A stretch of 64,000 nucleotides of DNA, taken from assembly GCF_056746865.1 (NCBI RefSeq), contig NZ_CM163382.1. The stretch is one strand, 5' to 3'. A program made the translations under genes and the position numbers. Shown in pieces: positions 40,956-50,871 of the stretch. Positions within the stretch are counted from its first letter, which is position 1. Each line of letters opens with the position of its first letter. The notes under the pieces are model-generated. The model ran no database searches. It was not told the origin of the DNA and saw only the letters and a list, made by a program, of their open reading frames with translations.

Positions 40956-42086
40956 ATGACCGGACGTAAAAACAAATGTGTCAGAAAAAATTGTAACAAT
41001 CAGGTTTTCTCAGTAAAAATGGCAGTGGAGAAAAGACTGTGCAGAAAACATTATGAGAGGTTTTGTGAGCTCAAAAAAAGAAGAGAGCAAAATCCTGTTC
41101 ACAGATTAAATGAAGCATTGCCAAGAAAGATAAAAGGACCAAAAAGTAAGAAAAAATTAGTAAAAGAAAGAGAAATCATTAACAGCAGAAAAAAACATAA
41201 ACAGGAGCAGGGACCATCGCTGACTGAACTTAATAAAAAAGTTCGTGAGATACTGAAAACTCCTGCATGGAGAACGCTGGAAACGAGAATTCGAAGAAAC
41301 GGAATCACATTTAAGTCAAAAGCAGAGTTAGATGCGCTTTCTGAACTTTATGCAATTTATTCATGGGTTTCATATTGCAAACGGGGCGATAATTATTCTG
41401 TGTGGTTTTTGAATTGTCCGGATGTAAATATAAACCTTCATGTGTGCGAATGCCGGTCTTCTGAAAGCGATTGTTATCTGCCATCTCGTTTTATTATTCT
41501 TCCAGCTCCATTAAGGCAAAAAGTAAAAAGAAAATACTCGGCTAATTCGTCTGGGGTACCAGGACATAATGATTCAAAAAGTCTTTATAAGACAGTTTTG
41601 TCTGTTTGTGGTGGGAAAAGAGAAACCGAATTGTTCTTTTATTCACTGCCAGTAAAGACTAATCATCATCCTTACTGGATTAAAAGTGGTGTGGTTAAAA
41701 GATTTCCTCCTGTTTTTGGTTTGTTGTTTTATGAACAGGAAAGATTAACAGGAGGTGTTTTTCGTTATGTGTTGATAAGGTTTTATAATACTTTTAAGGA
41801 GAATTTGTTTTTTGTTGAGATTGTCTCGTGCTGTTTTCTTGTTGAGCTTTTTCATGATATTGATTCGTTTTTTATAAATCAACGATTAAGTAAGCTGGAA
41901 AGTTTTATAGATAAGTGGAGGGAGGGTAAAGAAATCTGGATAAAAGCATATCTACAACTGATACATAATACATTGGGAATAACTGAAACAGAAAAACTCG
42001 TCAATCTATATAATTCATTTTTTACTGATAAAGTGGTTATCTGGGATGAATCAGTAAAAAAAGTTAAGTGGATTTATGAGAAATAG
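40956..42086 (+). CDS. Orphan hypothetical protein in AT-rich cargo locus (Lys/Arg- and Cys-rich N-terminus, aromatic-rich C-terminal half)
   Basis: 376-aa ORF with GGAG-like RBS (ggagatgagagg) before ATG; markedly AT-rich codon usage compared with flanking genes; no family recognised. Confidence 0.6.
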   Translation: MTGRKNKCVRKNCNNQVFSVKMAVEKRLCRKHYERFCELKKRREQNPVHRLNEALPRKIKGPKSKKKLVKEREIINSRKKHKQEQGPSLTELNKKVREILKTPAWRTLETRIRRNGITFKSKAELDALSELYAIYSWVSYCKRGDNYSVWFLNCPDVNINLHVCECRSSESDCYLPSRFIILPAPLRQKVKRKYSANSSGVPGHNDSKSLYKTVLSVCGGKRETELFFYSLPVKTNHHPYWIKSGVVKRFPPVFGLLFYEQERLTGGVFRYVLIRFYNTFKENLFFVEIVSCCFLVELFHDIDSFFINQRLSKLESFIDKWREGKEIWIKAYLQLIHNTLGITETEKLVNLYNSFFTDKVVIWDESVKKVKWIYEK

Positions 42087-42629
42087 TACCATTTAACTGA
42101 AAGCCACCATAACGTCTTTTTGACTACATCCATGATAATGAGTCTCATTTTGATTTCGTTTTTTTTGTTTCGGGAAATTTTCCGAACATCAGTGATAATG
42201 AGGGTTTTGTTGTTTTTGTTTCTGCAATGTTTGAGGGCTGTTCCTGGAGATGATTCGTTGCTTGTGAGCAAGAGGTGGTCCGCTTTACTGGACAAGTTTT
42301 GCATTTGTTGAGTGGTGAAATGGAAGTAAAAAGAGCCCCTTTCTGGCAATGACTGAAAAAGTCAGTAGCGTGTGACAGTAAAAACTAACATAAAGTGATT
42401 ATCGTATGATTATGACAATGACTTATAACTTTTATGAAAAGAACAACAGAAACTATGAAACCATAGCAGATTCCTGAGACCATGTTTTCTGAGGTAGAGA
42501 AAATAATTCAAGAGTAAACCAGTTTGTTTTTTGGTCAGTAAAGAACCATGCCTGATGTGAAAACGGGTAATCAACATTCAGTCTGCATGAATGTCTGAGA
42601 ATGTTGCTAATGTCGGTATGATACTATAT

Positions 42630-42725
42630 ACACGTATTTTACTAAGTATTTTTACTAAGCATTTCAGTAAGTGTTTTACCAGACATACACGTGTTTTCAT
42701 AAACAGCCCTATAAGTGTTTTCATT
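42630..42725. repeat. Cluster of degenerate ~12-bp direct repeats (iteron-like) in AT-rich intergenic region
   Basis: Motif (A/T)(C/A)TAAG(T/C)(A/G)TTTT / ACACGT(A/G)TTTT recurs at about 42634, 42646, 42659, 42671, 42691 and 42715, first four with ~12-bp spacing. Confidence 0.5.
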
Positions 42726-43601
42726 AAGCATTGCTGTACACATTGCTTTGTCTGAAACACATCCAGTTTAGTAAATCTTTACGTTAGCTAAAATCAGTTT
42801 AAAGCTGCTGTAAAACCTTTCTGTTTAAGCAATCAATCTGCTATTCGATTTTACTGATGTTGCGTTTAACCTTTTCTGAGTTTTTGTGTTTTTAGTCGTT
42901 AACCTGAGACAAGTGTCTTTACGTAAAAACGCAAATCCGACTGAGATAACCTGGTGTGATTTACGGTGTGCTTGCGACGATTTTGTTAAATGGTTCTATG
43001 GATGATTTTGTGACGATGAGATTGATGAGATGATTAACTGGCCCTGGTGTTTTTTCTCAGTGCAAGGTGATTATCTTCATCATAAGGCTCTTTTCAGAAA
43101 AAGCGTGATGATTGGTTCTGGTGTTTTGATTCAGATGAGATTTACGTTATCGATGGTTAATCGTTTTTATGGTGTGTTGAAAAGTAACGTTTTCACGATA
43201 AGAAAATCGATTCTGATATTGGTGAACTTTGTTCTTGTGGCAGGGTTATCTGTAAACAGGTTTTAAGTGCGCTATTCGGCTCTGTGATTGAGTTGTGTGG
43301 TTAAGCTGTAGGTTTTGGTGTTGTTGTTGATTTACAGCGCCAGAAAGCGTTCTGATTGCGTTTTTGATGTTTTGTTTGCACGTTCTGTTGATCCGTTTCC
43401 CTTCAGGCTTTGTAGTTTTTAAAAACCATTTATGCCGTTGTTGTGTGTTTTATCCTGCGTGTAGGTTTATCTTTTCTTCGTGGGGGATTCATTCTGTTTT
43501 AATCAGGAGCCATTGGCGTTGCTCAATGGCGGGATGCCGTAAAGTTTTACCGCAGTGATTAATGATGTGAAGTCAATCCAAATCAACGGAGATCTCTCAT
43601 C

Positions 43602-44333
43602 ATGAATCAACCAATACACAATGCTTACTGGTTATCCCGTTTTGAAAGTATTCTCAACAGTGCCCTGGCGCAACACCGTGCCGTCTCGTTAATCCGGGTG
43701 GATTTACGTTTCCCTGAGTATATGCCTGCCACCATCATGGATACCGATTTAGATTCAGCGGTGATTTCTCGTTTTTTTGCATCCCTGAAAGCAAAAATTC
43801 AGGCTTACCAGCGACATAAACGACGTGCCAACAAGCGTGTGCGTGCAACCACTCTGCGTTATTTCTGGTGTCGGGAGTTTGGCAAGGAAAAAGGCAGGAA
43901 ACATTATCACGTGATATTACTGCTCAACAAAGATACCTGGTGCTCGCCAGGGGATTTCACCGTTCCTTCTTCGCTGGCGACACTGATCAAGCTGGCATGG
44001 TGTAGTGCTCTGCATCTTGAGCCCTGGCAGGGTAATGGACTGGTTCATTTTTCCAGGCGGACGCCTTTCCGTAAACCGACATCATCTGATGCTCGCCCTT
44101 CTTCCGATGATACGCCTTTGTCGGGTGGATGTTCTGATACCAGGAAGGCTTCAGACAAAAAGCCGGGTGAAGCCGCTGTTCTCTGGATCAAGCGTGGTGA
44201 TGTGGAAGCGCTGCAGAAAGCCCGGAACAGAGCCAGTTATCTCGTGAAATATGAGACGAAGCAGCATGACGGTTCCGGGCAACGTAATTATGGTTGCAGT
44301 CGTGGGCCGGGGCGTCTGCTGGATGGCAGGTGA
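43602..44333 (+). CDS. Inovirus Gp2-like / YagK-YfjJ family protein with HUH-type and YxxKYxxK motifs
   Basis: 243-aa ORF; contains HYHVILLL (HUH-like) and SYLVKYETK (rolling-circle Rep motif-3-like). Confidence 0.7.
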   Translation: MNQPIHNAYWLSRFESILNSALAQHRAVSLIRVDLRFPEYMPATIMDTDLDSAVISRFFASLKAKIQAYQRHKRRANKRVRATTLRYFWCREFGKEKGRKHYHVILLLNKDTWCSPGDFTVPSSLATLIKLAWCSALHLEPWQGNGLVHFSRRTPFRKPTSSDARPSSDDTPLSGGCSDTRKASDKKPGEAAVLWIKRGDVEALQKARNRASYLVKYETKQHDGSGQRNYGCSRGPGRLLDGR

Positions 44334-44689
44334 GCCCTGTAAAACGACATCCGGTGTCTGAGCTTATGCTACAGGACGTTGGCTGACGCCCTTAGCTCGT
44401 TTTCTGAAAAAGTCGTCCTGAAGTCATGCAACGGTATTTTTCTCTGCTTTCGCTCCTGGAAACACTCCGTCGGTAAAACCTTACTGTCCTGCTTAATGAT
44501 GTGAACCGAAGTCAACGGAGAGCATTCATTCTGAACCTGCATCCGGTGTTCTGTCCCTTGTCGGTTACCTGATCTTCCCGTTCTGCCGCGGTTTTTCACT
44601 TATTCCATCAACCCCATACGCAAGCCATAACACGTCAGCGCATCCACGGGCAGGACGCGTTGTGGGCTGCGTATAACGGAACATATCTT

Positions 44690-45262
44690 ATGAATGCTAT
44701 CCCTTATTTCGACTATAGCATGGCGCCCTTCTGGCCATCTTATCAGAACAAAATCATCGGCGTTCTCAACCGTGTGTTGCGCGAGCAGTCCTGCTCCCGA
44801 ATACGGCGGATCCTGCTTCGTCTGCCGGGGGAACATGGCAACATCTTCAGCGACAGAAAAACCTGGTTCGGTATGGCCTTTATCGAAACCGTCAGTGCGC
44901 TGATGAATGCAACACCCGGACGCGACCTCTGCTGGCTCCTGACACGTCATCCTGAAAAACCGGAATACCACGTGGTGCTGTGCGTCAGACAGGAATATTT
45001 CGACGGCCCTGAGCTGGACCGGTTGATTCTGGATGCCTGGAGCAACGTACTGGGCTTCGCGTCACCGGGTGAAGCAGCACCGTACCAGAAACAGATAACC
45101 CGGGATGTGGTGCTGGACAGTTGTTCACCGGACTGCGAAGAGAGACTCAAAGAGCTGATATGGGCGTTCAGTGATTTCGCCCGCGATCGTCGTGGTGTGC
45201 GCGATCCGGAAGCCCGTTACCTCGCCGGTAATCCCTGGTATCCCGTAGCAGGCCAGCTCTGA
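44690..45262 (+). CDS. Divergent Gp2-like paralog (hypothetical)
   Basis: ORF 44660..45262 (TTG-initiated in track); ATG at 44690 gives MNAIPYFD…; shares N-terminal R-h-x-L-R-x-P-x-E motif with 43602..44333 but lacks clear HUH and Tyr motifs. Confidence 0.5.
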   Translation: MNAIPYFDYSMAPFWPSYQNKIIGVLNRVLREQSCSRIRRILLRLPGEHGNIFSDRKTWFGMAFIETVSALMNATPGRDLCWLLTRHPEKPEYHVVLCVRQEYFDGPELDRLILDAWSNVLGFASPGEAAPYQKQITRDVVLDSCSPDCEERLKELIWAFSDFARDRRGVRDPEARYLAGNPWYPVAGQL

Positions 45263-45330
45263 AAGCTCAGCTCAGCAGATTCACCCGCATTTGCCCAACA
45301 TTCATAAATCTCACAGAGGACATTCTGACC

Positions 45331-45567
45331 ATGTTGACCTCAATGACAGGTCACGACAGCGTATTGCTGCGTGCCGACGATCCCCTGATCGACATGAACT
45401 ACATCACCAGCTTCACTGGTATGACCGACAAATGGTTTTACAAGCTGATCAGTGAAGGCCATTTCCCTAAACCCATCAAACTGGGGCGCAGCAGCCGCTG
45501 GTACAAAAGTGAAGTGGAGCAGTGGATGCAGCAACGAATCGAGGCATCACGAGGGGCAGCAGCATGA
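45331..45567 (+). CDS. alpA: AlpA-family phage regulatory protein (HTH)
   Basis: 78-aa ORF with AlpA-like core (…ITSFTGMTDKWFYKLISEGHFPKPIKLGRSSRWYKSEVEQWMQQR…). Confidence 0.8.
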   Translation: MLTSMTGHDSVLLRADDPLIDMNYITSFTGMTDKWFYKLISEGHFPKPIKLGRSSRWYKSEVEQWMQQRIEASRGAAA

Positions 45568-45767
45568 AACGTGTTGTAATGCCGGTACGCTGGCAATGTG
45601 CAAAATACCAGCGTTGGTATTGTGGAAATCAGCCCTGTCCCTGGTGCTGGCGACCTGCTGCCCCCGTCTGTCATTCCTCGTTCTTCGCTGTAACAGGCAT
45701 CGTACCGGTCTCGGCGTGCTTTCCTGCGTACCGACACCGGTTCAGCAACATTCAAGGGGATCAAATC

Positions 45768-46304
45768 GTGCAAATAACCGAAACCGTACTTTCAGAGCCG
45801 GTGGAAATCCGGCGTTTTATTCAGCAGGCGGTGGATCACTGGCCGCGTCTGCTGGCCGTCCACTTCACACTCCATTCGGCAGAAGGAAACATCAACGGAC
45901 AACAGATTCATGCATTCTGTACTTCCTTTTATGAACGTATTACTGAGCGTAATCACACGACCAGTCCATCATCGCCGGTGGTATTACGCTGGTTGCGGGA
46001 ACAACATGGAGGAGCAACAATGCGATGCCTGTTGCTGCTCAGCCAGACGAGTATTTGTCACCCGCGAGCCAGTGTCACAGTTGATGAACAATGTTCGCAA
46101 GTGGTGGATTTACTGCAGCAGACCTGGCGGGGGATGGATACGGGCGGACAATGTCGGGTGGAAAGGTGTTTTCAGGCTGCCCGGGGTGATACATCCGGCC
46201 AGTATATTGCGTTAAAAACAGTTGCATTGTCTCTGGGGTTACCGGTTGTGACCGGTATTACCCATCGCCCGGTACAGCGCTGTACATTGATTACAGCTCA
46301 GTGA
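45768..46304 (+). CDS. Hypothetical protein, possible third Gp2-like paralog
   Basis: In-frame part of ORF 45522..46304; GTG at 45768 preceded by AAGGGGA RBS; alternative ATG start at 45564 overlaps alpA stop (ATGA). Confidence 0.45.
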   Translation: MQITETVLSEPVEIRRFIQQAVDHWPRLLAVHFTLHSAEGNINGQQIHAFCTSFYERITERNHTTSPSSPVVLRWLREQHGGATMRCLLLLSQTSICHPRASVTVDEQCSQVVDLLQQTWRGMDTGGQCRVERCFQAARGDTSGQYIALKTVALSLGLPVVTGITHRPVQRCTLITAQ

Positions 46305-46321
46305 ACAGCGCTGTTGTGCAG

Positions 46322-46833
46322 TCAACGAGGTTTTCTGTCTTTTCGTCGGTCATTCAGCATCATTAAACGGGTCTCTGCCTCTTTCTGTTCCTGTGGTGTC
46401 ACTTCCCCGCACGGCTGACCGTTCAGGTTGTAACGGGCGCCACCTGCTATTAACGCACGGTAATAGCGCGGAGACTGCACATAAGACGCCACTGCTGCAT
46501 GTAATGTACCAGCGCCAAACGCCAGTTCTCGGATGGCGATATCCTGTATCAGGTCGTCAGGTATCCCCACTTTAAGTGGTTTTGTTTTTTTCCCGGTTGA
46601 ATGACTCAGGCCAGAGTTCCACAAGACGAATAATGCGCTTACGGTTTTTGCTCTGGCGTTTTGTCATGTCGCCACGGTGTTTTATCAGCAGGTTTCTGTT
46701 TATCGTTCAACTGTGGTATCTGGTCACCGGCCTTCATTTTGTATGCTGTGTCCGTTTTATCCTGCAGCGGCGTTGCCGGTGATTTACTGAAAATACCCTG
46801 CGGTTTACGGTTAATGGTCAGAGTTACCATCAA
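46322..46833 (-). pseudogene. Two consecutive ORFs (64 aa and 100 aa) in different frames, possibly one disrupted gene
   Basis: ORFs 46639..46833 and 46322..46624 on the same strand separated by 14 bp with a frame change; no family recognised. Confidence 0.3.
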
Positions 46834-47188
46834 TTTTGTTACCTCGCGCTGTCAATGGAAGTAGTACCTCATCCGATATCTGAAAATGTTTTCCGGTGGA
46901 TGTTACAGCGAATTTCATGTAAGACATGTTGTTGTCGGTATTGTTCAGTACTGTGCGTTGTGAGCGTATTCGTTATCAGACAGAGGGGCAGGGAACAAAT
47001 GGCGTAAACGGACATCTCAGTGCCTGAGAAACAGTACAGGTCAGGCCATCATGGCCTGCAAACAGAGCCCTGGCGACCCCGTGGCCGAAAACGAAACAAT
47101 AACCCGCGCGCAGTGCGAGGAATCCGGATGTGAAGCAATCAGCAGGTAATATTAATGGCAGGACCAGCAGGTTCTTTAAACAAACGAA

Positions 47189-47951
47189 GGTGGTGACTCC
47201 AATTAGTAGAACATATATTTTTCGATAAAGGCACCGATGACTTTTTCATGAAGTTCTACAGAGCGCGAGAAACAGATAGTTCTGCGGGCCAGACGTTTGA
47301 TTCGGGTTCTCAGAGGTAGATGTTGCGCTCAATGCGCTGAGTAAAAATCTTACCAGTCAGATGCTTCTCCTTCGGTAACTCTCTGGTGTAACTACCCCAT
47401 TCGTCAGTGGTCAACATACCGATGGTAAAAGGGCAAGCAGCGCCAGCAATTCACGACAGGTTTAATCAGTCCGTAGGCCAAAAGTGTAGGCCAGAACGCC
47501 ACCAGTTTTCGTGTTGTACGTGTACCAGAGCCAGTGCTGTCGCGCTTTACTGCCGACAAAACTCCATTGCTCATCAAGTTCGCAGATGAGTGCCATATCA
47601 GCATGAGCGACCGGGTATGACGTTATTCTTCGTGGCGAGAGTTTTTTAAAGTCCGGATGACAGTATTAATGCCGATTTTCAGCGTACGGGCAGTATCGCG
47701 AACTCCGGCACCGTTGAAAGCCATTTCAGTGATTTGCTCTTTAACTCCCGGTTTACGGGCCTCGTAACGGTAAGTGAGCTGAAGCACTCGATGACAGTCA
47801 CGGCAGCGAAATCGATCATGTCCTTTGGGTTCTTCCCGTGACGGTAAACCTGAACGGACTGGCAACAGGAGCAATGAAGGTTAACTGTGACCATGAAAGA
47901 ACCTTAAAAGTGGCTATTATACTCCTAATTCAACTAATTGGAGTCATTACC
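47189..47951 (-). mobile_element. IS1-family insertion sequence (divergent isoform), insB apparently degenerate
   Basis: Terminal inverted repeats ggtggtgactccaatt (47189-47204) and ggtaatgactccaatt (rc of 47936-47951); length 763 bp; insA intact; conserved TTAAAAAAC frameshift motif at insA end; InsB-like translation needs at least two further frame changes. Confidence 0.75.
47623..47874 (-). CDS. insA: IS1-family InsA (zinc-finger/HTH transposition regulator)
   Basis: 83-aa ORF with CxxC…CxxC zinc finger and C-terminal HTH resembling IS1 InsA (…GINTVIRTLKNS…). Confidence 0.8.
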   Translation of the reverse strand: MLLLPVRSGLPSREEPKGHDRFRCRDCHRVLQLTYRYEARKPGVKEQITEMAFNGAGVRDTARTLKIGINTVIRTLKNSRHEE

Positions 47952-49329
47952 GTATTCATAATGGATTAGGTTCAGCAGTTGCTGAAGTGCTTGTAGAAAC
48001 TTGTCCTGTGCCCATGCGTCGGGTGGGGGTTAAAGAGCGGTATGGCCAGGTTGAAACTCAGGACTTTTTACAGAGAGAGTACGGGTTAACCGCGCAAGCT
48101 ATTGTGGCGGCAGCCAGAGAGCTATTGTAATTCATGGAGTTTGTTTACCATTCTGTTTTTCTTAAAAGTGAGTGTCTGTGCGGTCACTAAACTCGGTAAT
48201 AAAGCAGTTCATTGCAGGATAAGAAGCGTTTGGTTGTGTCGTTTTACCGTAAGAACCGACCGCCGTATGTATCCATTAAGCCAGTATTGGTAACGTAGGT
48301 GCCCACCTTTTCAAACTGGTGGGCGCCTGTTATGGAGCAAAAACATTATCCGCAGAACCCCGCAGATCATTTTCAAATGAGTTAAACTTCAAATGGTTAA
48401 ACTGGCTTTGCAACCAGGAGCCTCTGTTGCCCGTATTGCCCGGGAACACGATATCAATGATAACCTCCTGTTCAAATGGCTCAGACTCTGGCAGAACGTA
48501 AGGTAAAGGGAGATGAAAAAGGCAATAGCAGAACTGAGTGACAGTGAAACCATTCTGGCGTACAGGGTTGGATGGTGAAACTGATAAAAAAACCCTCTGA
48601 AAATTCTGTCAGAGGGTGTAGTCAAAAATGGTAGATATTTACGATGCAGTAATGCTTTCACTCCGGTAATTAATTTCCGTGATTAACTGCTTTCGATCAA
48701 TAAAGGAATTGCAAAAGTGTGATCTTGTTCACGACATCGTGGATGATAATATGCCTGATGTCTGAATCCGGAAACAGTGCTCTGGCGGGTTTCATGTGAA
48801 GTTGACGGATAAAAAATCCGCACGACCAGACAGACGTGCGGTTTACGAAATTCGTAACAAGAGGCTTTTCTACGGATCACGTGGTGCGTGCCACGTGAAA
48901 TTTTTGTAGCGCAAAATGTGCAATGTGTAAATACAAGGAAGGAAAAAAGTTAAATTGGTAGAAGTCCATGCCTGCCACATGTACGTCTGCATTCCTCGTT
49001 TTGAACAGAATTCTCACCAGACATCGTGAATTTCTCATTCAATCATCAGAGATATTAACCAGGATTTTTATTGTTTTGTGATATCAGCAGTGCAGGTATA
49101 CAGACGTTAAAGTAATCAGGTTTATTATAACCACCTTTACAAAGTTGTATATGTTTATAATTTAATGATTTTAATGCCAGTCGTTTTCTGCTGCTTAAAT
49201 TGAGGTCGCATATTATACACAATAATATTCTTAGCATTATTAAATTAATAAGAGAGGATTCTTATCACTGTATTTTTGCTCCGCACTACCGTTCTGGCTG
49301 GTGAAGTAATAATACAGGAGAATAACAGA

Positions 49330-50871
49330 ATGCTTAAAAGACGTGATGCTTTTTTAAAGAAAAGCGCGCTGGCAGTGAGTGTGGCCCTGCTGCTCTCGGC
49401 TCAGGCTCAGGCTGTTTTGACAGGGCCTGTTGATGGTAATTCTTCCAGCTTACTGATTGGAGAAAACTCTTTTATTACGAATTTAACTGGTACAGTTAAT
49501 AACACTTTCCTTTTGGGAGGTGGCGCTTTTAACCTGGATTCACCAGGAAGTCTTCAGTTTGGCTCTTTTTCGGAAGTGTATAATTCTCCACACAGTGTCA
49601 CCCTGGGAAGGGATGCCGGTCAGGCTGAGTCAAAATATGGTGTTGCCATAGGTAAGAGCGCTGAGGTATTTAATTCACAGCATAGTGTTGCTATTGGGGG
49701 ATGGGCTGGAATAGAAAATTCTTCAGGCTCTGTAGCTCTGGGCCATGGCTCACAGGTGTCGGGAGAAAATAACGTGGTATCTGTTGGTGCCGGGCCTGAG
49801 GGATATGGAAAGAGTGTCAAAGGAGCACCGGAAACCCGCCGGATTATAAATGTGTCTGATGGTATCAATAACACAGATGCAGCGACGGTAGGGCAACTGA
49901 ATGAACGATTTGATGATGCACAGGTCTTTTTGTTGCAGACGAATGAAAGAATTGACGAGACAGATAAACGTCTTTCAACAGTTCATGCTGAACTCAGCAG
50001 GGATATTATTGCAGGCACATCGGCAGCGGTGACGTATACAGATGTAACAGCGCTTGCACTTCAGGATGAGATAAAGGATGGGACGAACAAAGTACGTGAT
50101 GAGTTGAAATCACAGGGAGACAGTCTGCGTGGTGAGATAGGCGGTGTATACAGAGATGCCCGTGCTCATACTGACAGTCAGGTCACAGCAGTACGTGATG
50201 AACTGAAGGCAGAGGGAGACAGTCTGCGCGGTGAGATAGGCGGTGTATACAGAGATGCCCGTGCTCATACTGACAGTCAGGTCACAGCAGTACGTGATGA
50301 ACTCAGCAGGGATATTATTGCAGGCACATCGGCAGCGGTGGCGTATACGGATGCATCTTCTCTTGCTCTTCAGGATGAAATAAAAGAAAAAGCGGATGAA
50401 ACAGTTCAGGTTTCCCGGGCTTATACAGATAAAAGTGTACGGGATGCCCGTAAAGAAGCGAAAAGCCAGGCAGAACATCTCAGCGATGTGCTTGTGAAGA
50501 ACAGGGCGCAGACGGATGCAGCAATAGCCTCAAATACAGCAGCGATAAGGAATAACAGTCATCGTCTGGATTTGACGGAAGCCTGGCAGAAGATGGCGAC
50601 AGAGAGAATGAATAATATGCAGGAGCAGATTAAAGAGAACCGGAAGGAGTTAAGGGAGAGTGCAGCCCAGAGCGCGGCACTGGCCGGTCTTTTCCAGCCA
50701 TACAGTGTTGGAAAATTTAACGCGACAGCAGCCGTTGGTGGTTACCGTGATGAGCAGGCCATTGCGGTGGGCGTGGGCTACCGTTTCACAGAGAATGTGG
50801 CAGGAAAAGTTGCAGTTGCTGCAGGTGGGTCATCCGCATCGTGGAATGCTGGTGTGAATTTTGAGTTCTGA
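49330..50871 (+). CDS. Trimeric autotransporter adhesin (YadA-like C-terminal anchor) with repeat-containing coiled-coil stalk
   Basis: ORF 49276..50871 trimmed to [28 protein letters not shown] (signal peptide); YadA-type head repeats (SVAIG/ VSVGAG), coiled-coil stalk, C-terminal beta-barrel anchor ending …AGVNFEF. Confidence 0.8.
50115..50312 (+). repeat. Tandem 99-bp (33-aa) direct duplication inside the adhesin stalk
   Basis: Units beginning gggagacagtctgcg at 50115 and 50214, encoding [30 protein letters not shown] twice; flanked by a second, more distant repeat pair ([12 protein letters not shown]…LALQDEIK). Confidence 0.8.

Follow-up and report, generated by a model that had tools for sequence, protein, structure and literature searches.

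The locus and its island module

A ProQ/FinO-family pseudogene on the minus strand marks the edge of a conserved Gp2/AlpA module within an E. coli pathogenicity island of the ExPEC type. Positions given here are those of the 64,000-nucleotide stretch of contig NZ_CM163382.1 (assembly GCF_056746865.1), referred to as the window. The module runs in the order Gp2/YagK-YfjJ, hypothetical protein, AlpA, 182-aa hypothetical protein and then the convergent ProQ/FinO gene, and it is found in every related island examined where the region is visible, with an IS3 replacing the ~190-aa gene in one of them (L007). The features of the region are as follows.

43602-44333 (+): Gp2/YagK-YfjJ gene (PF11726, E 2.9e-36)
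44660-45262 (+): gene for a hypothetical protein of ~190-200 aa
45331-45567 (+): AlpA-family HTH/excisionase-like gene (PF05930, E 2e-10; PHROG 'excisionase and transcriptional regulator')
45756..46304 (+): gene for the 182-aa hypothetical protein, the convergent neighbour, its stop 17 bp from the stop of the pseudogene
46322..46830 (-): whole ProQ/FinO-family pseudogene, ATG at 46830, TGA stop at 46322-46324
46666..46830 (-): segment 1, ancestral residues 1-55, conserved N-terminal motif MVTLTINRKPQGIF and variable Q/K/P/T-rich linker
46665..46668 (-): lesion 1, 2-bp deletion in an AT dinucleotide repeat, CATATG to CATG, +1 frame shift
46572..46667 (-): segment 2, 31-aa ORF MTKRQSKNRKRIIRLVELWPESFNREKNKTT followed by a stop, ancestral residues 56-84, basic stretch and first FinO-domain helix
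46585..46591 (-): lesion 2, run of 7 A, C-to-A substitution and one inserted A, second +1 shift
46322..46580 (-): segment 3, ancestral residues 85-169 and the stop, remaining FinO domain and basic C-terminal tail
46834..47192 (-): non-coding upstream region, 359 bp, conserved in related islands up to the IS1
47193..47894 (-): end of a divergent, degenerate IS1, pseudo-CDS 47203-47894, InsA-like ORF starting at 47894

The 182-aa gene and the ProQ/FinO gene are paired at every locus examined. One RefSeq record gives the 182-aa protein the name 'UCP030791 family putative phage-derived protein', and the protein has no match in Pfam, NCBIfam, PHROG or PADLOC. A PADLOC search for a defence role leaves the ProQ/FinO protein and all but one of the four neighbours tested without a match, the exception being a single weak match for the AlpA protein (PDC-M06B, E 6e-05).

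Upstream of the pseudogene, homology to the islands L004 and L006 stops at about 47192 (alignment A2), and IS1 replaces what lay beyond; the bases flanking this boundary resemble the IS1 terminal repeat. Sequence that matches window positions 46991-47232 with 100% identity bears the PGAP annotation 'IS1 family transposase, frameshifted; internal stop'. The element did not cut the gene, as it lies 359 bp upstream of the start, nor does it belong to a truncated second element, which the first-pass annotation had offered as an option: the pseudogene is the last gene of the same conserved Gp2/AlpA module.

One ancestral gene in three frames

Two minus-strand ORFs had been described at the locus, of 64 aa (46639..46833) and 100 aa (46322..46624), both with TTG starts, separated by a 14-bp gap (46625-46638) and a difference of frame. 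The ORF list bears this out, and the conserved-looking core GIPDDLIQDIAIRELAFGAGTLHAAV does sit in the 100-aa ORF. The Pro/Lys/Gln-rich stretch (...PQLNDKQKPADKTPWRHDKTPEQKP) that had been placed in the same core-bearing ORF is located instead in the 5'-proximal 64-aa ORF, the TTG of which, at 46833, lies one codon upstream of the ancestral ATG at 46830. Overlooked was the 31-aa ORF of segment 2, in the third frame, which bridges the other two. Owing to the presence of the first FinO-domain helix in this third frame, the gene must have been split into three frames by two frameshifts; the earlier proposal of a frameshifted gene was right, but not its version with a single shift and two frames.

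The family, left unassigned by the first-pass annotation, is PF04352 (ProQ/FINO). The 100-aa ORF matches this Pfam profile with E 4.9e-17 and 62.3 bits (cut-off 27), and the repaired 114 aa, obtained by joining the 31-aa ORF to the 100-aa ORF, with 3.1e-21 and 75.8 bits (same cut-off), the addition of segment 2 extending profile coverage from 23-107 to 5-107. When an intact 169-aa homologue is compared with the window by tblastn (E 2e-73), its residues 1-169 are covered in three frames: residues 1-55 by segment 1 in frame -2 with 98% identity, residues 56-84 by segment 2 in frame -3 (46667..46581), and the rest by segment 3 in frame -1. Given the Pfam score of the 100-aa ORF and this E-value, the ORF pair is far beyond chance.

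A protein search returns 272 relatives, mostly of 158-185 aa. Each intact homologue is a single gene, 158-185 aa long, which spans both ORFs, and intact single genes of 158-174 aa occupy the same position in related islands. As full-length relatives carry both parts in one frame, the three pieces are, by alignment, one ancestral ProQ/FinO-family gene of ~169 residues, and not the two small genes that had been offered as an option. It is highly improbable that the 63/64-aa product, which keeps TLTINRKPxGI, and/or the 100-aa ORF are expressed and act separately. The 63-aa ORF does use the ancestral ribosome-binding site (GAGG) and start; in alleles with the 2-bp deletion alone, PGAP calls a 63-aa 'hypothetical protein' (WP_001323513.1, WP_001366542.1) together with a 114-aa ProQ/FINO protein; and two lineages with independent N-terminal splits, by the 2-bp deletion and, in L012, by a 5-bp insertion, are both left with one and the same 114-aa ORF. 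However, the two parts are fused in all full-length relatives, and for the N-terminal part disorder is predicted, and Pfam and NCBIfam offer no separate family. Moreover, the ends of both ORFs are out-of-frame sequence, comprising the last 9 residues of the 64-aa ORF, where segment 1 continues out of frame until the TAA at 46639-46641, and the first 14 codons of the 100-aa ORF (MWNSGLSHSTGKKT). The 100-aa ORF also lacks the first helix of the fold, and no Shine-Dalgarno motif is seen by eye upstream of its TTG start. Compared with the intact genes, the 63-aa and 114-aa calls likewise derive from one gene.

The ancestral protein comprised, in order, a short N-terminal motif, a Q/K/P/T-rich linker, a basic stretch TPWRHMTKRQRKNRKR, the FinO domain and a basic C-terminal tail. 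The motif, M-x-T-L-T-I-N-R-K-P-x-G-I, is conserved across 26 relatives, and the pattern of change in the N-terminal part is that of coding sequence (6 synonymous differences and 1 non-synonymous difference from L004). Fold prediction used this intact homologue, L004, rather than the broken window copy. In its AlphaFold2 model, residues 51-169 have block-mean pLDDT values of 73-92 and residues 1-50 values below 50; the Q/K/P/T-rich linker is probably disordered, and the counterpart of segment 2 forms a helix (residues 58-73). Foldseek returns 26 PDB matches of this model at E <= 1e-3, and every one is a FinO-domain structure (TM up to 0.85, target-normalised; r.m.s.d. of about 2.1 Å). Sequence matches in the PDB are the ProQ NTD (5nb9, 1.6e-11), FinO (1dvo, 2.3e-11), NMB1681 and RocC.

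The intact subfamily is, on comparison of domains and profile scores, neither ProQ, FinO nor FopA. FinO (1DVO), the fertility inhibition protein encoded by F-like plasmids, has the same domain as the intact relative (phmmer E 2.3e-11 over residues 66-160; Foldseek r.m.s.d. 2.2 Å over 102 columns, 30% identity), and both are encoded by mobile elements and have a basic N-terminal region ahead of the domain. The intact relative nevertheless scores 50.5 bits against the NCBIfam NF010317 cut-off of 136, its N-terminal motif differs, and the island gene is chromosomal rather than adjoining traX on an F-like plasmid.

ProQ (5NB9), a global RNA chaperone encoded on the chromosome in E. coli and Salmonella, shares the FinO domain over its residues 22-126 (E 1.6e-11). 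The intact family has counterparts of ProQ R58 (His in one relative), Y70 and R80 (PMC10168233); the window allele has His at the first of these. Against the ProQ equivalog NF003434, with a cut-off of 127, the intact relative scores 50.8 bits. ProQ has 232 aa. The 169-aa intact relative lacks both the linker and the C-terminal Tudor-like domain and is extended at the N-terminus instead; past the FinO domain, intact relatives continue for 10-30 residues.

FopA (YafB) of the IncI plasmid pCol1B9 is a further mobile-element FinO-domain protein with a family-specific basic N-terminal region and without a ProQ-type C-terminal domain. Membership of its family was rejected, as identity (36%) extends over 81 residues of the FinO domain only and the N-terminal parts remain unaligned (E 3.5). 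The contexts differ as well: the gene for FopA is flanked by yafA and yagA on the plasmid, whereas the island gene is convergent to the 182-aa gene in the Gp2/AlpA module. Structurally, the modelled domain is best matched by NMB1681 of Neisseria meningitidis (3MW6), Legionella Lpp1663 (6S10) and RocC (7RGT/7RGU), with Foldseek E of about 1e-6, TM up to 0.85 (target-normalised) and identities of 28-35%. Such minimal FinO-domain proteins are similar in size to the 114-aa short form of the A6 alleles described below, but these three come from other taxa and are chromosomal core or competence genes. No paper describing the island-borne subfamily, and no experimental study of it, was found in the full-text literature searched.

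Two frameshifts and the fate of the gene

At lesion 1 the intact genes read GCGACATATGACAAAA and the window GCGACATGACAAAA (DNA alignment A1, columns 183-184); the deletion is also present in L003, L009 and L016. At lesion 2 the intact genes read GGGAAAAACC (GGGAAAAACCAAAACC) and the window GGGAAAAAAAC (GGGAAAAAAACAAAACC; alignment A1, columns 261-268), so that A5CC stands at this site in intact genes and only the lineage of the window allele has A6 or A7. L003 was dropped as evidence on the order of the mutations, its N-terminal part being identical to the window and its C-terminal part L004-like; owing to this recombinant structure, the A6 alleles L009 and L016 were used. L016 otherwise differs from the window by only two SNPs near the start codon, and L009 by two substitutions. 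Both lesions are visible in the alignment, and these alleles indicate their order relative to the A6 allele.

In the proposed course of events, the 2-bp deletion in CATATG would have come first and parted the N-terminal 55 residues from the rest, leaving a 114-aa ORF (basic stretch plus FinO domain) that would start at an internal Met. A C-to-A change would then have made the A6 run, and its expansion by one base to A7 would have cut the 114-aa ORF after the first helix. The products that could now be translated would be an N-terminal fragment of 63/64 aa and a peptide of 31 aa, with the other 85 domain codons lying in the TTG-start 100-aa ORF. The window thus lacks an uninterrupted domain-coding frame, with two frameshifts and the FinO domain cut after its first helix; none of its fragment products can form the FinO fold, and even the 114-aa form is beyond it.

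The two lesions fall within short repeats, ATAT and the A-run, of the kind where errors typically arise, and homopolymer or dinucleotide miscalls could in principle account for one or both indels. The probability of such a sequencing or assembly artefact is negligible. The 701 bases from 46250 to 46950 are 100% identical in many independent complete assemblies, the same sequence recurs in hundreds of them from different laboratories and years, and the 2-bp deletion is common to the A6 alleles and L003. An exact 90-mer around the A-run, counted in 5426 complete E. coli genomes, gives A7 in 347, A6 in 2 and neither A8 nor A9 (0 each); as 90 bases are identical in 347 of 5426 complete genomes, this is no sequencing error. 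This unchanged allele in 347 genomes could reflect the recent spread of one island haplotype.

A run of seven A raises the question of whether the frame is restored during expression. RNA polymerase might drop one A, or tRNA-Lys might slip by +1 on AAA-AAA-C, yielding a low-level 114-aa FinO-domain protein (MTKRQ...REKTKPLKVG...) in which the junction peptide would be ...FNREKTKPLKVG... (FNREKTKPLKVGIPDDLIQDIAIR). One A fewer would restore exactly the 114-aa protein P0082, a real allele; the P-site Lys codon, as read from the sequence, re-pairs perfectly after a +1 slip; and a run of seven A allows a low level of slippage by RNA polymerase or ribosome. Disrupted bacterial ORFs can be restored by transcriptional slippage, and slippage-prone runs, judged by selection against them and by documented use, have about 9 and sometimes 8 bases (PMC1088944), so that the 7-base run falls short of the documented length. 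Furthermore, the A5CC of intact relatives means that the slippery run is not conserved in the family, the homologues of which are single ORFs, and no stimulatory stop, rare codon or upstream Shine-Dalgarno-like motif is seen. The 114-aa ORF reads as lacking a clear ribosome-binding site, and the rescued product would be without the N-terminal 55 residues and would carry substitutions at invariant positions. We regard recoding of this kind as very unlikely.

Extremely unlikely is a phase-variable switch, in which replication slippage would toggle the run between A6 (ON, 114-aa protein) and A7 (OFF) and so exert a heritable, reversible control over an island RNA chaperone. A6 and A7 do occur on nearly the same haplotype, L016 differing by the two SNPs in the start-codon region and the run length; both are found in one genome, ECCNB12-2; and a database protein, P0115 (REKKTKPLKV), is consistent with an A9 run. 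A contingency tract would, however, vary widely, and the two A6 copies may be the ancestral state; phase variation was rejected on the exact-probe allele counts. For high-rate slippage in E. coli, a tract of seven bases is short. As the run is stable and intact relatives have no slippery run, both phase variation and programmed recoding are unlikely.

The main reading is decay. We consider it highly probable that two small indels have inactivated an island-borne ProQ/FinO-family gene here and left a dead copy, and we infer that the locus is not expressed. The repaired window allele carries five changes (R61S, N68I, L77S, D135N and K137N) unseen at conserved positions in 26 intact relatives, among which the L77 and D135 positions are invariant; such changes at invariant family positions fit decay. 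A sixth, R111H, affects the counterpart of ProQ R58, although His is also found in 1 of the 26 intact relatives (L006); the counterparts of Y70 and R80 (Y123 and R133) do not vary within the family, and the window has both. In ProQ, R58, Y70 and R80 are conserved RNA-binding residues of the concave face, and R58 is essential for RNA binding (PMC10168233). For the FinO part, dN/dS is 0.20-0.24 between the window and intact genes and 0.13-0.17 among intact genes, a small difference based on few substitutions and a tentative sign of relaxed constraint. The codons of the FinO domain remain open and can still be recognised, which means that the inactivation is not ancient.

The gene decays repeatedly. 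A match is present in 867 E. coli genomes, and all 1424 of 1424 places are chromosomal; in a plasmid collection, 380 of 383 matches fall below 60% identity, and the few close ones include H71, the record of which, at 4.8 Mb, is evidently a chromosome. An evenly spaced sample of 40 of the 867 matching genomes contains 15 rows that are 99.6-100% identical to the window allele, of which the one inspected (the record of H31) is the A7 pseudogene, and 12 rows that are about 89% identical and belong to a lineage with a 5-bp insertion, with or without an internal stop. All five loci inspected in the ~89% lineage (four sample rows, and L012 as the fifth) are split or pseudogenes, and this lineage was, judging by its different lesion, inactivated independently.

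The window copy is an ordinary pseudogene that is already annotated publicly: in SMS-3-5 and TUM9803, where the sequence is 100% identical, RefSeq/PGAP has a pseudo-CDS named 'ProQ/FINO family protein, frameshifted'. The entry of E. coli SMS-3-5, ECSMS35_RS30170, is the same allele, with boundaries that map to window positions 46322-46830. The existing annotation omits the number and position of the two lesions.

Putative role of the intact proteins

Intact relatives would probably act as RNA chaperones. By analogy with FinO, FopA, RocC and ProQ, the expected ligand of an intact protein would be a structured RNA, bound at its terminator hairpin and U-tail and thereby shielded or aided in pairing with a target, and the target would most plausibly be an RNA encoded by the island itself. 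FopA binds Inc, the cis-antisense RNA of its own plasmid (PMC7491321), and this binding is a model for the possible action of an island-borne homologue.

No FinP-like antisense partner was found for the island gene. Rfam at gathering thresholds, run over the whole window, returns only STnc630, 45 kb away, and in E-value mode over 43000-47400 one sub-threshold chance match. The upstream region (357 nt folded) folds no better than shuffled sequence on either strand (z +1.10 and -0.11) and matches no Rfam family, and for the region from alpA to the 182-aa gene in six islands the RNAalifold covariation term of +0.87 gives no support. A promoter and terminator scan of 42000-47400 yields counts at or below shuffle expectation. 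Two candidates were set aside: the one good hairpin with a U-tract (45797-45813), which is invariant and lies inside coding sequence, and a plus-strand terminator-like CCACTTTAAGTGG with a T-run, which is only the conserved PLKVG codons and the A-run seen in complement.

A bolder proposal would make the island FinO-domain subfamily a dedicated chaperone for an RNA of the Gp2/AlpA module, for example in excision or replication-like control, with both N-terminal splits selected for a minimal 114-aa isoform and A6/A7 serving as a slow, reversible ON/OFF switch; we hold it to be a long shot.

For the locus, the analysis corrects a possible annotation as two or three 'hypothetical proteins' to one dead gene with exact lesions, and means little otherwise. 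Studies of mobile-element FinO-domain proteins should use an intact allele of the 169-aa L004 type and not the window allele. More broadly, pathogenicity islands and CP4-57-like islands of E. coli commonly carry a FinO-domain gene of their own, at a fixed position convergent to the 182-aa gene.

A frameshifted ProQ/FinO-family gene

The locus at 46322..46830 on the minus strand is a ProQ/FinO-family pseudogene with two frameshifts, which RefSeq already marks as a frameshifted pseudogene. The ORF listing gives three reading frames at the locus:

46639..46833, minus strand: 64-aa ORF
46322..46624, minus strand: 100-aa ORF
46572..46667, minus strand: 31-aa ORF, MTKRQSKNRKRIIRLVELWPESFNREKNKTT, in the third frame, overlapping both others

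The first-pass annotation had described the 64-aa and 100-aa ORFs, correctly placing them in different frames with a 14-bp gap, and had missed the third. The Pro/Lys/Gln-rich stretch and the core that it assigned to one product are both present, the stretch in the 64-aa ORF and the core, GIPDDLIQDIAIRELAFGAGTLHAAV, in the 100-aa ORF.

The 100-aa ORF matches PF04352 (ProQ/FINO) in Pfam with an E-value of 4.9e-17 over profile positions 23–107 of 109, and a Pfam search with the 64-aa ORF returned no match. The 31-aa and 100-aa ORFs, joined by deleting one A in the A-run, give a 114-aa sequence matching PF04352 with an E-value of 3.1e-21 from position 5 to 107. As joining extends profile coverage to position 5, it is the third frame that holds the start of the domain lacking in the 100-aa ORF.

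Among homologous E. coli loci fetched for comparison (L numbers), intact single genes are found in SW070919 (L004, 169 aa), SCU-308 (L006, 158 aa), FXCREC004 (L015, 159 aa) and EE72d (L007, 174 aa), all of them copies more distant from the window. By tblastn of an intact protein, the window holds a single copy of the gene, distributed over three frames:

46830..46666, minus strand: ancestral residues 1–55, first frame
46667..46581, minus strand: ancestral residues 56–84, second frame
down to 46325, minus strand: remaining ancestral residues, third frame

DNA alignment with the intact genes places the first lesion, a 2-bp deletion (GCGACATATGAC to GCGACATGAC), at 46665–46668, and the second, a C-to-A substitution together with the insertion of one A (GGGAAAAACCAAAACC to GGGAAAAAAACAAAACC), in the A-run at 46585–46591. 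In every full-length relative the parts are fused, which contradicts their being independent small genes; of the two readings first offered, a frameshifted gene or two small genes, the former stands, with intact relatives being single genes and RefSeq annotating SMS-3-5 and TUM9803, both 100% identical over 46250–46950, with a pseudogene 'ProQ/FINO family protein, frameshifted', whose ends map to 46322 and 46830. Megablast of 46250–46950 against 5426 complete E. coli genomes found a match in 1123, always chromosomal, with 333 at ≥99% identity.

Alleles of the A-run

Run length was counted with exact probes of 89–92 nt in the same 5426 genomes.

Genomes with an exact match, by run length
A6: 2
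A7: 347
A8: 0
A9: 0

These counts indicate that the lesion is real and stable, and neither a sequencing error nor a visibly hypervariable tract. Sequencing error is excluded by the identical sequence in hundreds of assemblies, and phase variation of the A-run is contradicted by the 347:2:0:0 distribution (A7:A6:A8:A9).

The A6 run combined with the 2-bp deletion occurs in two complete genomes, APEC IMT5155 and, as a second copy, ECCNB12-2; on these alleles PGAP calls a 63-aa hypothetical protein and a 114-aa ProQ/FINO protein. The latter, in ECCNB12-2, is identical to the repaired window sequence (one A taken out of the A-run) and to database protein P0082. Because run length and two SNPs close to the start are all that separates this A6 copy from the window across the whole gene, the window allele is the A6 allele plus one A. 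The ECCNB12-2 record (NZ_CP033635.1) has four matching places in total, its A7 and A6 copies lying in different copies of the island at 2640002–2640091 and 5173075–5173163, the latter being locus L016. OkiPb01701 (L003) combines the 2-bp deletion and the ancestral A5CC; it is a recombinant, with an N-terminal part identical to the window and an L004-like FinO part differing from the window at 14 positions, and says little on the order of events.

Slippage at the A7 run, which would regenerate P0082 and so rescue the gene by recoding, is chemically possible, but the run is not conserved across the family, has no evident stimulator and falls short of the 8–9 bases known from documented slippage or from selection against it (PMC1088944).

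Family, fold and expected function

A protein search retrieved 272 relatives, nearly all belonging to Escherichia, Shigella, Salmonella or Citrobacter, typically of 158–185 aa, along with many 114-aa short forms. Searched against sequences of solved structures, an intact homologue matched the ProQ N-terminal domain (5nb9, E 1.6e-11) and FinO (1dvo, E 2.3e-11), as well as NMB1681 (3mw6), RocC (7rgt/7rgu/7rgs) and Lpp1663 (6s10). Its AlphaFold2 model has pLDDT <50 at residues 1–50 and block-mean pLDDT of 73–92 at 51–169, where the elements run helix 58–73, helices 90–101/107–118/121–129, β-hairpin, helix 146–166. All 26 PDB chains significantly matched by the model in Foldseek (E ≤ 1e-3) are FinO-domain structures, with TM up to 0.85 (target-normalised) and r.m.s.d. 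of ~2.1 Å.

The island subfamily scores 50.8 bits against the ProQ model NF003434 (cut-off 127) and 50.5 bits against the FinO model NF010317 (cut-off 136), and is classified by sequence as a PF04352 member that is neither ProQ nor FinO. With FopA/YafB of pCol1B9 (NC_017718; PMC7491321) it shares 36% identity across 81 domain residues, and the N-terminal parts are unrelated. No account of this island-borne branch was found in the literature searched, including the review PMC9977716, and the intact subfamily appears to be unstudied. Going by family membership, RNA pairing by the intact protein would be aided by its basic flanking regions, and the most plausible ligand would be an island RNA, on the pattern of FinO/FinP and FopA/Inc; Rfam, folding, alignment and a promoter/terminator scan around the gene yielded no partner RNA.

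Island setting and decay

The gene is the last of a five-gene module:

43602–44333, plus strand: Gp2/YagK-YfjJ gene (PF11726, E 2.9e-36)
44660–45262, plus strand: ~190-aa hypothetical gene
45331–45567: AlpA-type HTH gene (PF05930)
45756–46304, plus strand: 182-aa hypothetical gene
last: ProQ/FinO gene, transcribed convergently with the 182-aa gene, the two stops lying 17 bp apart

Gene order is constant across the related islands fetched, where shown, except in L007, where an IS3 replaces the ~190-aa gene. Both neighbouring hypothetical proteins resemble the Gp2/YagK-YfjJ protein weakly (21–23% identity, E 0.04–0.09, around its Rep-like core), reach no Pfam, NCBIfam or PHROG model, and could be very distant paralogues of it, an idea contained in the wording 'Gp2-like genes' of the first-pass annotation.

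Past the ProQ/FinO gene the islands differ, the genes there including Rpn, H-NS and a small one of 228 nt. The window has a conserved non-coding stretch of 359 bp, which leads to the end of a degenerate IS1 at 47193 (47193–47894, minus strand; its pseudo-CDS is annotated as frameshifted and interrupted by a stop), and the gene is not cut by it. At ~48000–49000 are transketolase gene fragments and another transposase gene, per annotation of the collinear SMS-3-5 region. The wider SMS-3-5 neighbourhood is a pathogenicity island of ExPEC type: besides aerobactin (iuc) genes and those for the kps capsule, it contains a block resembling CP4-57 (GTPase, DUF932, antirestriction, YeeU/CbtA). Large ORFs of the window occupy corresponding positions.

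Non-coding sequence upstream of the pseudogene, at ~46991–46999, has a 30-nt indel flanked by a 9-nt direct repeat, TTTGTTCCC; in the alignment L003 carries the additional 30 nt, which the window, L004 and L006 lack, and BLAST offsets imply a similar insertion at this site in SMS-3-5, L009 and L016. A 1000-nt alignment of the window with SMS-3-5 over 46000–46999 contains 22 mismatches, which, given identity over 46250–46950, fall in 46000–46249 and/or 46951–46999. Recombination mosaics occur at window 46000–46250, inside the 182-aa gene, and at L003 4167–4511, the latter window-like in the N-terminal part of the ProQ/FinO gene and L004-like in its FinO part. Between alpA and the 182-aa gene (45655–45670) the window lacks ~70–90 nt found in five islands (L004–L007, L009). 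Elsewhere, Rfam identifies a single family in the window, a full-length match to the enterobacterial sRNA STnc630 (RF02052; 1731–1896, plus strand; 181 bits, gathering score 55), and a 531-aa YadA-like adhesin ORF (49276–50871, plus strand) has an internal tandem duplication, one 30-residue block occurring twice; its gene differs in length between strains (1110 nt in SMS-3-5, 1548 nt in TUM9803).

Over the FinO part, Nei-Gojobori dN/dS is 0.13–0.17 among intact genes and 0.20–0.24 for the repaired window allele against them, a gap that rests on few substitutions. The N-terminal part differs from L004 by six synonymous changes and one non-synonymous change and was thus formerly coding in the ancestral frame, consistent with the motif M-x-T-L-T-I-N-R-K-P-x-G-I, conserved among 26 relatives with identities as low as 60%. 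At conserved positions the repaired protein carries R61S, N68I, L77S, D135N and K137N, residues absent from all 26 relatives, in which Leu 77 and Asp 135 are invariant. It has His at R111, aligned with R58, one of the three residues that ProQ needs to bind every RNA tested (PMC10168233), and keeps the counterparts of ProQ Y70 and R80. The window copy has two translatable products, a 31-aa peptide and a fragment of 63/64 aa for which disorder is predicted; what remains of the domain, without its first helix, lies in an ORF starting at a TTG, upstream of which no Shine-Dalgarno motif was seen on reading by eye. Most likely, the window copy does nothing.

In an allele lineage ~89% identical to the window gene (L005, L012, L013, L014), the N-terminal linker is interrupted by a 5-bp insertion, giving in L012 ORFs of 57 and 114 aa, the latter from the same internal Met as in the 2-bp-deletion alleles; in L005, L013 and L014 the FinO domain additionally contains a stop codon (TAT TAA TGT). 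Judged from these alignments, that lineage was inactivated independently of the window lineage, and the island-borne gene appears to decay repeatedly.
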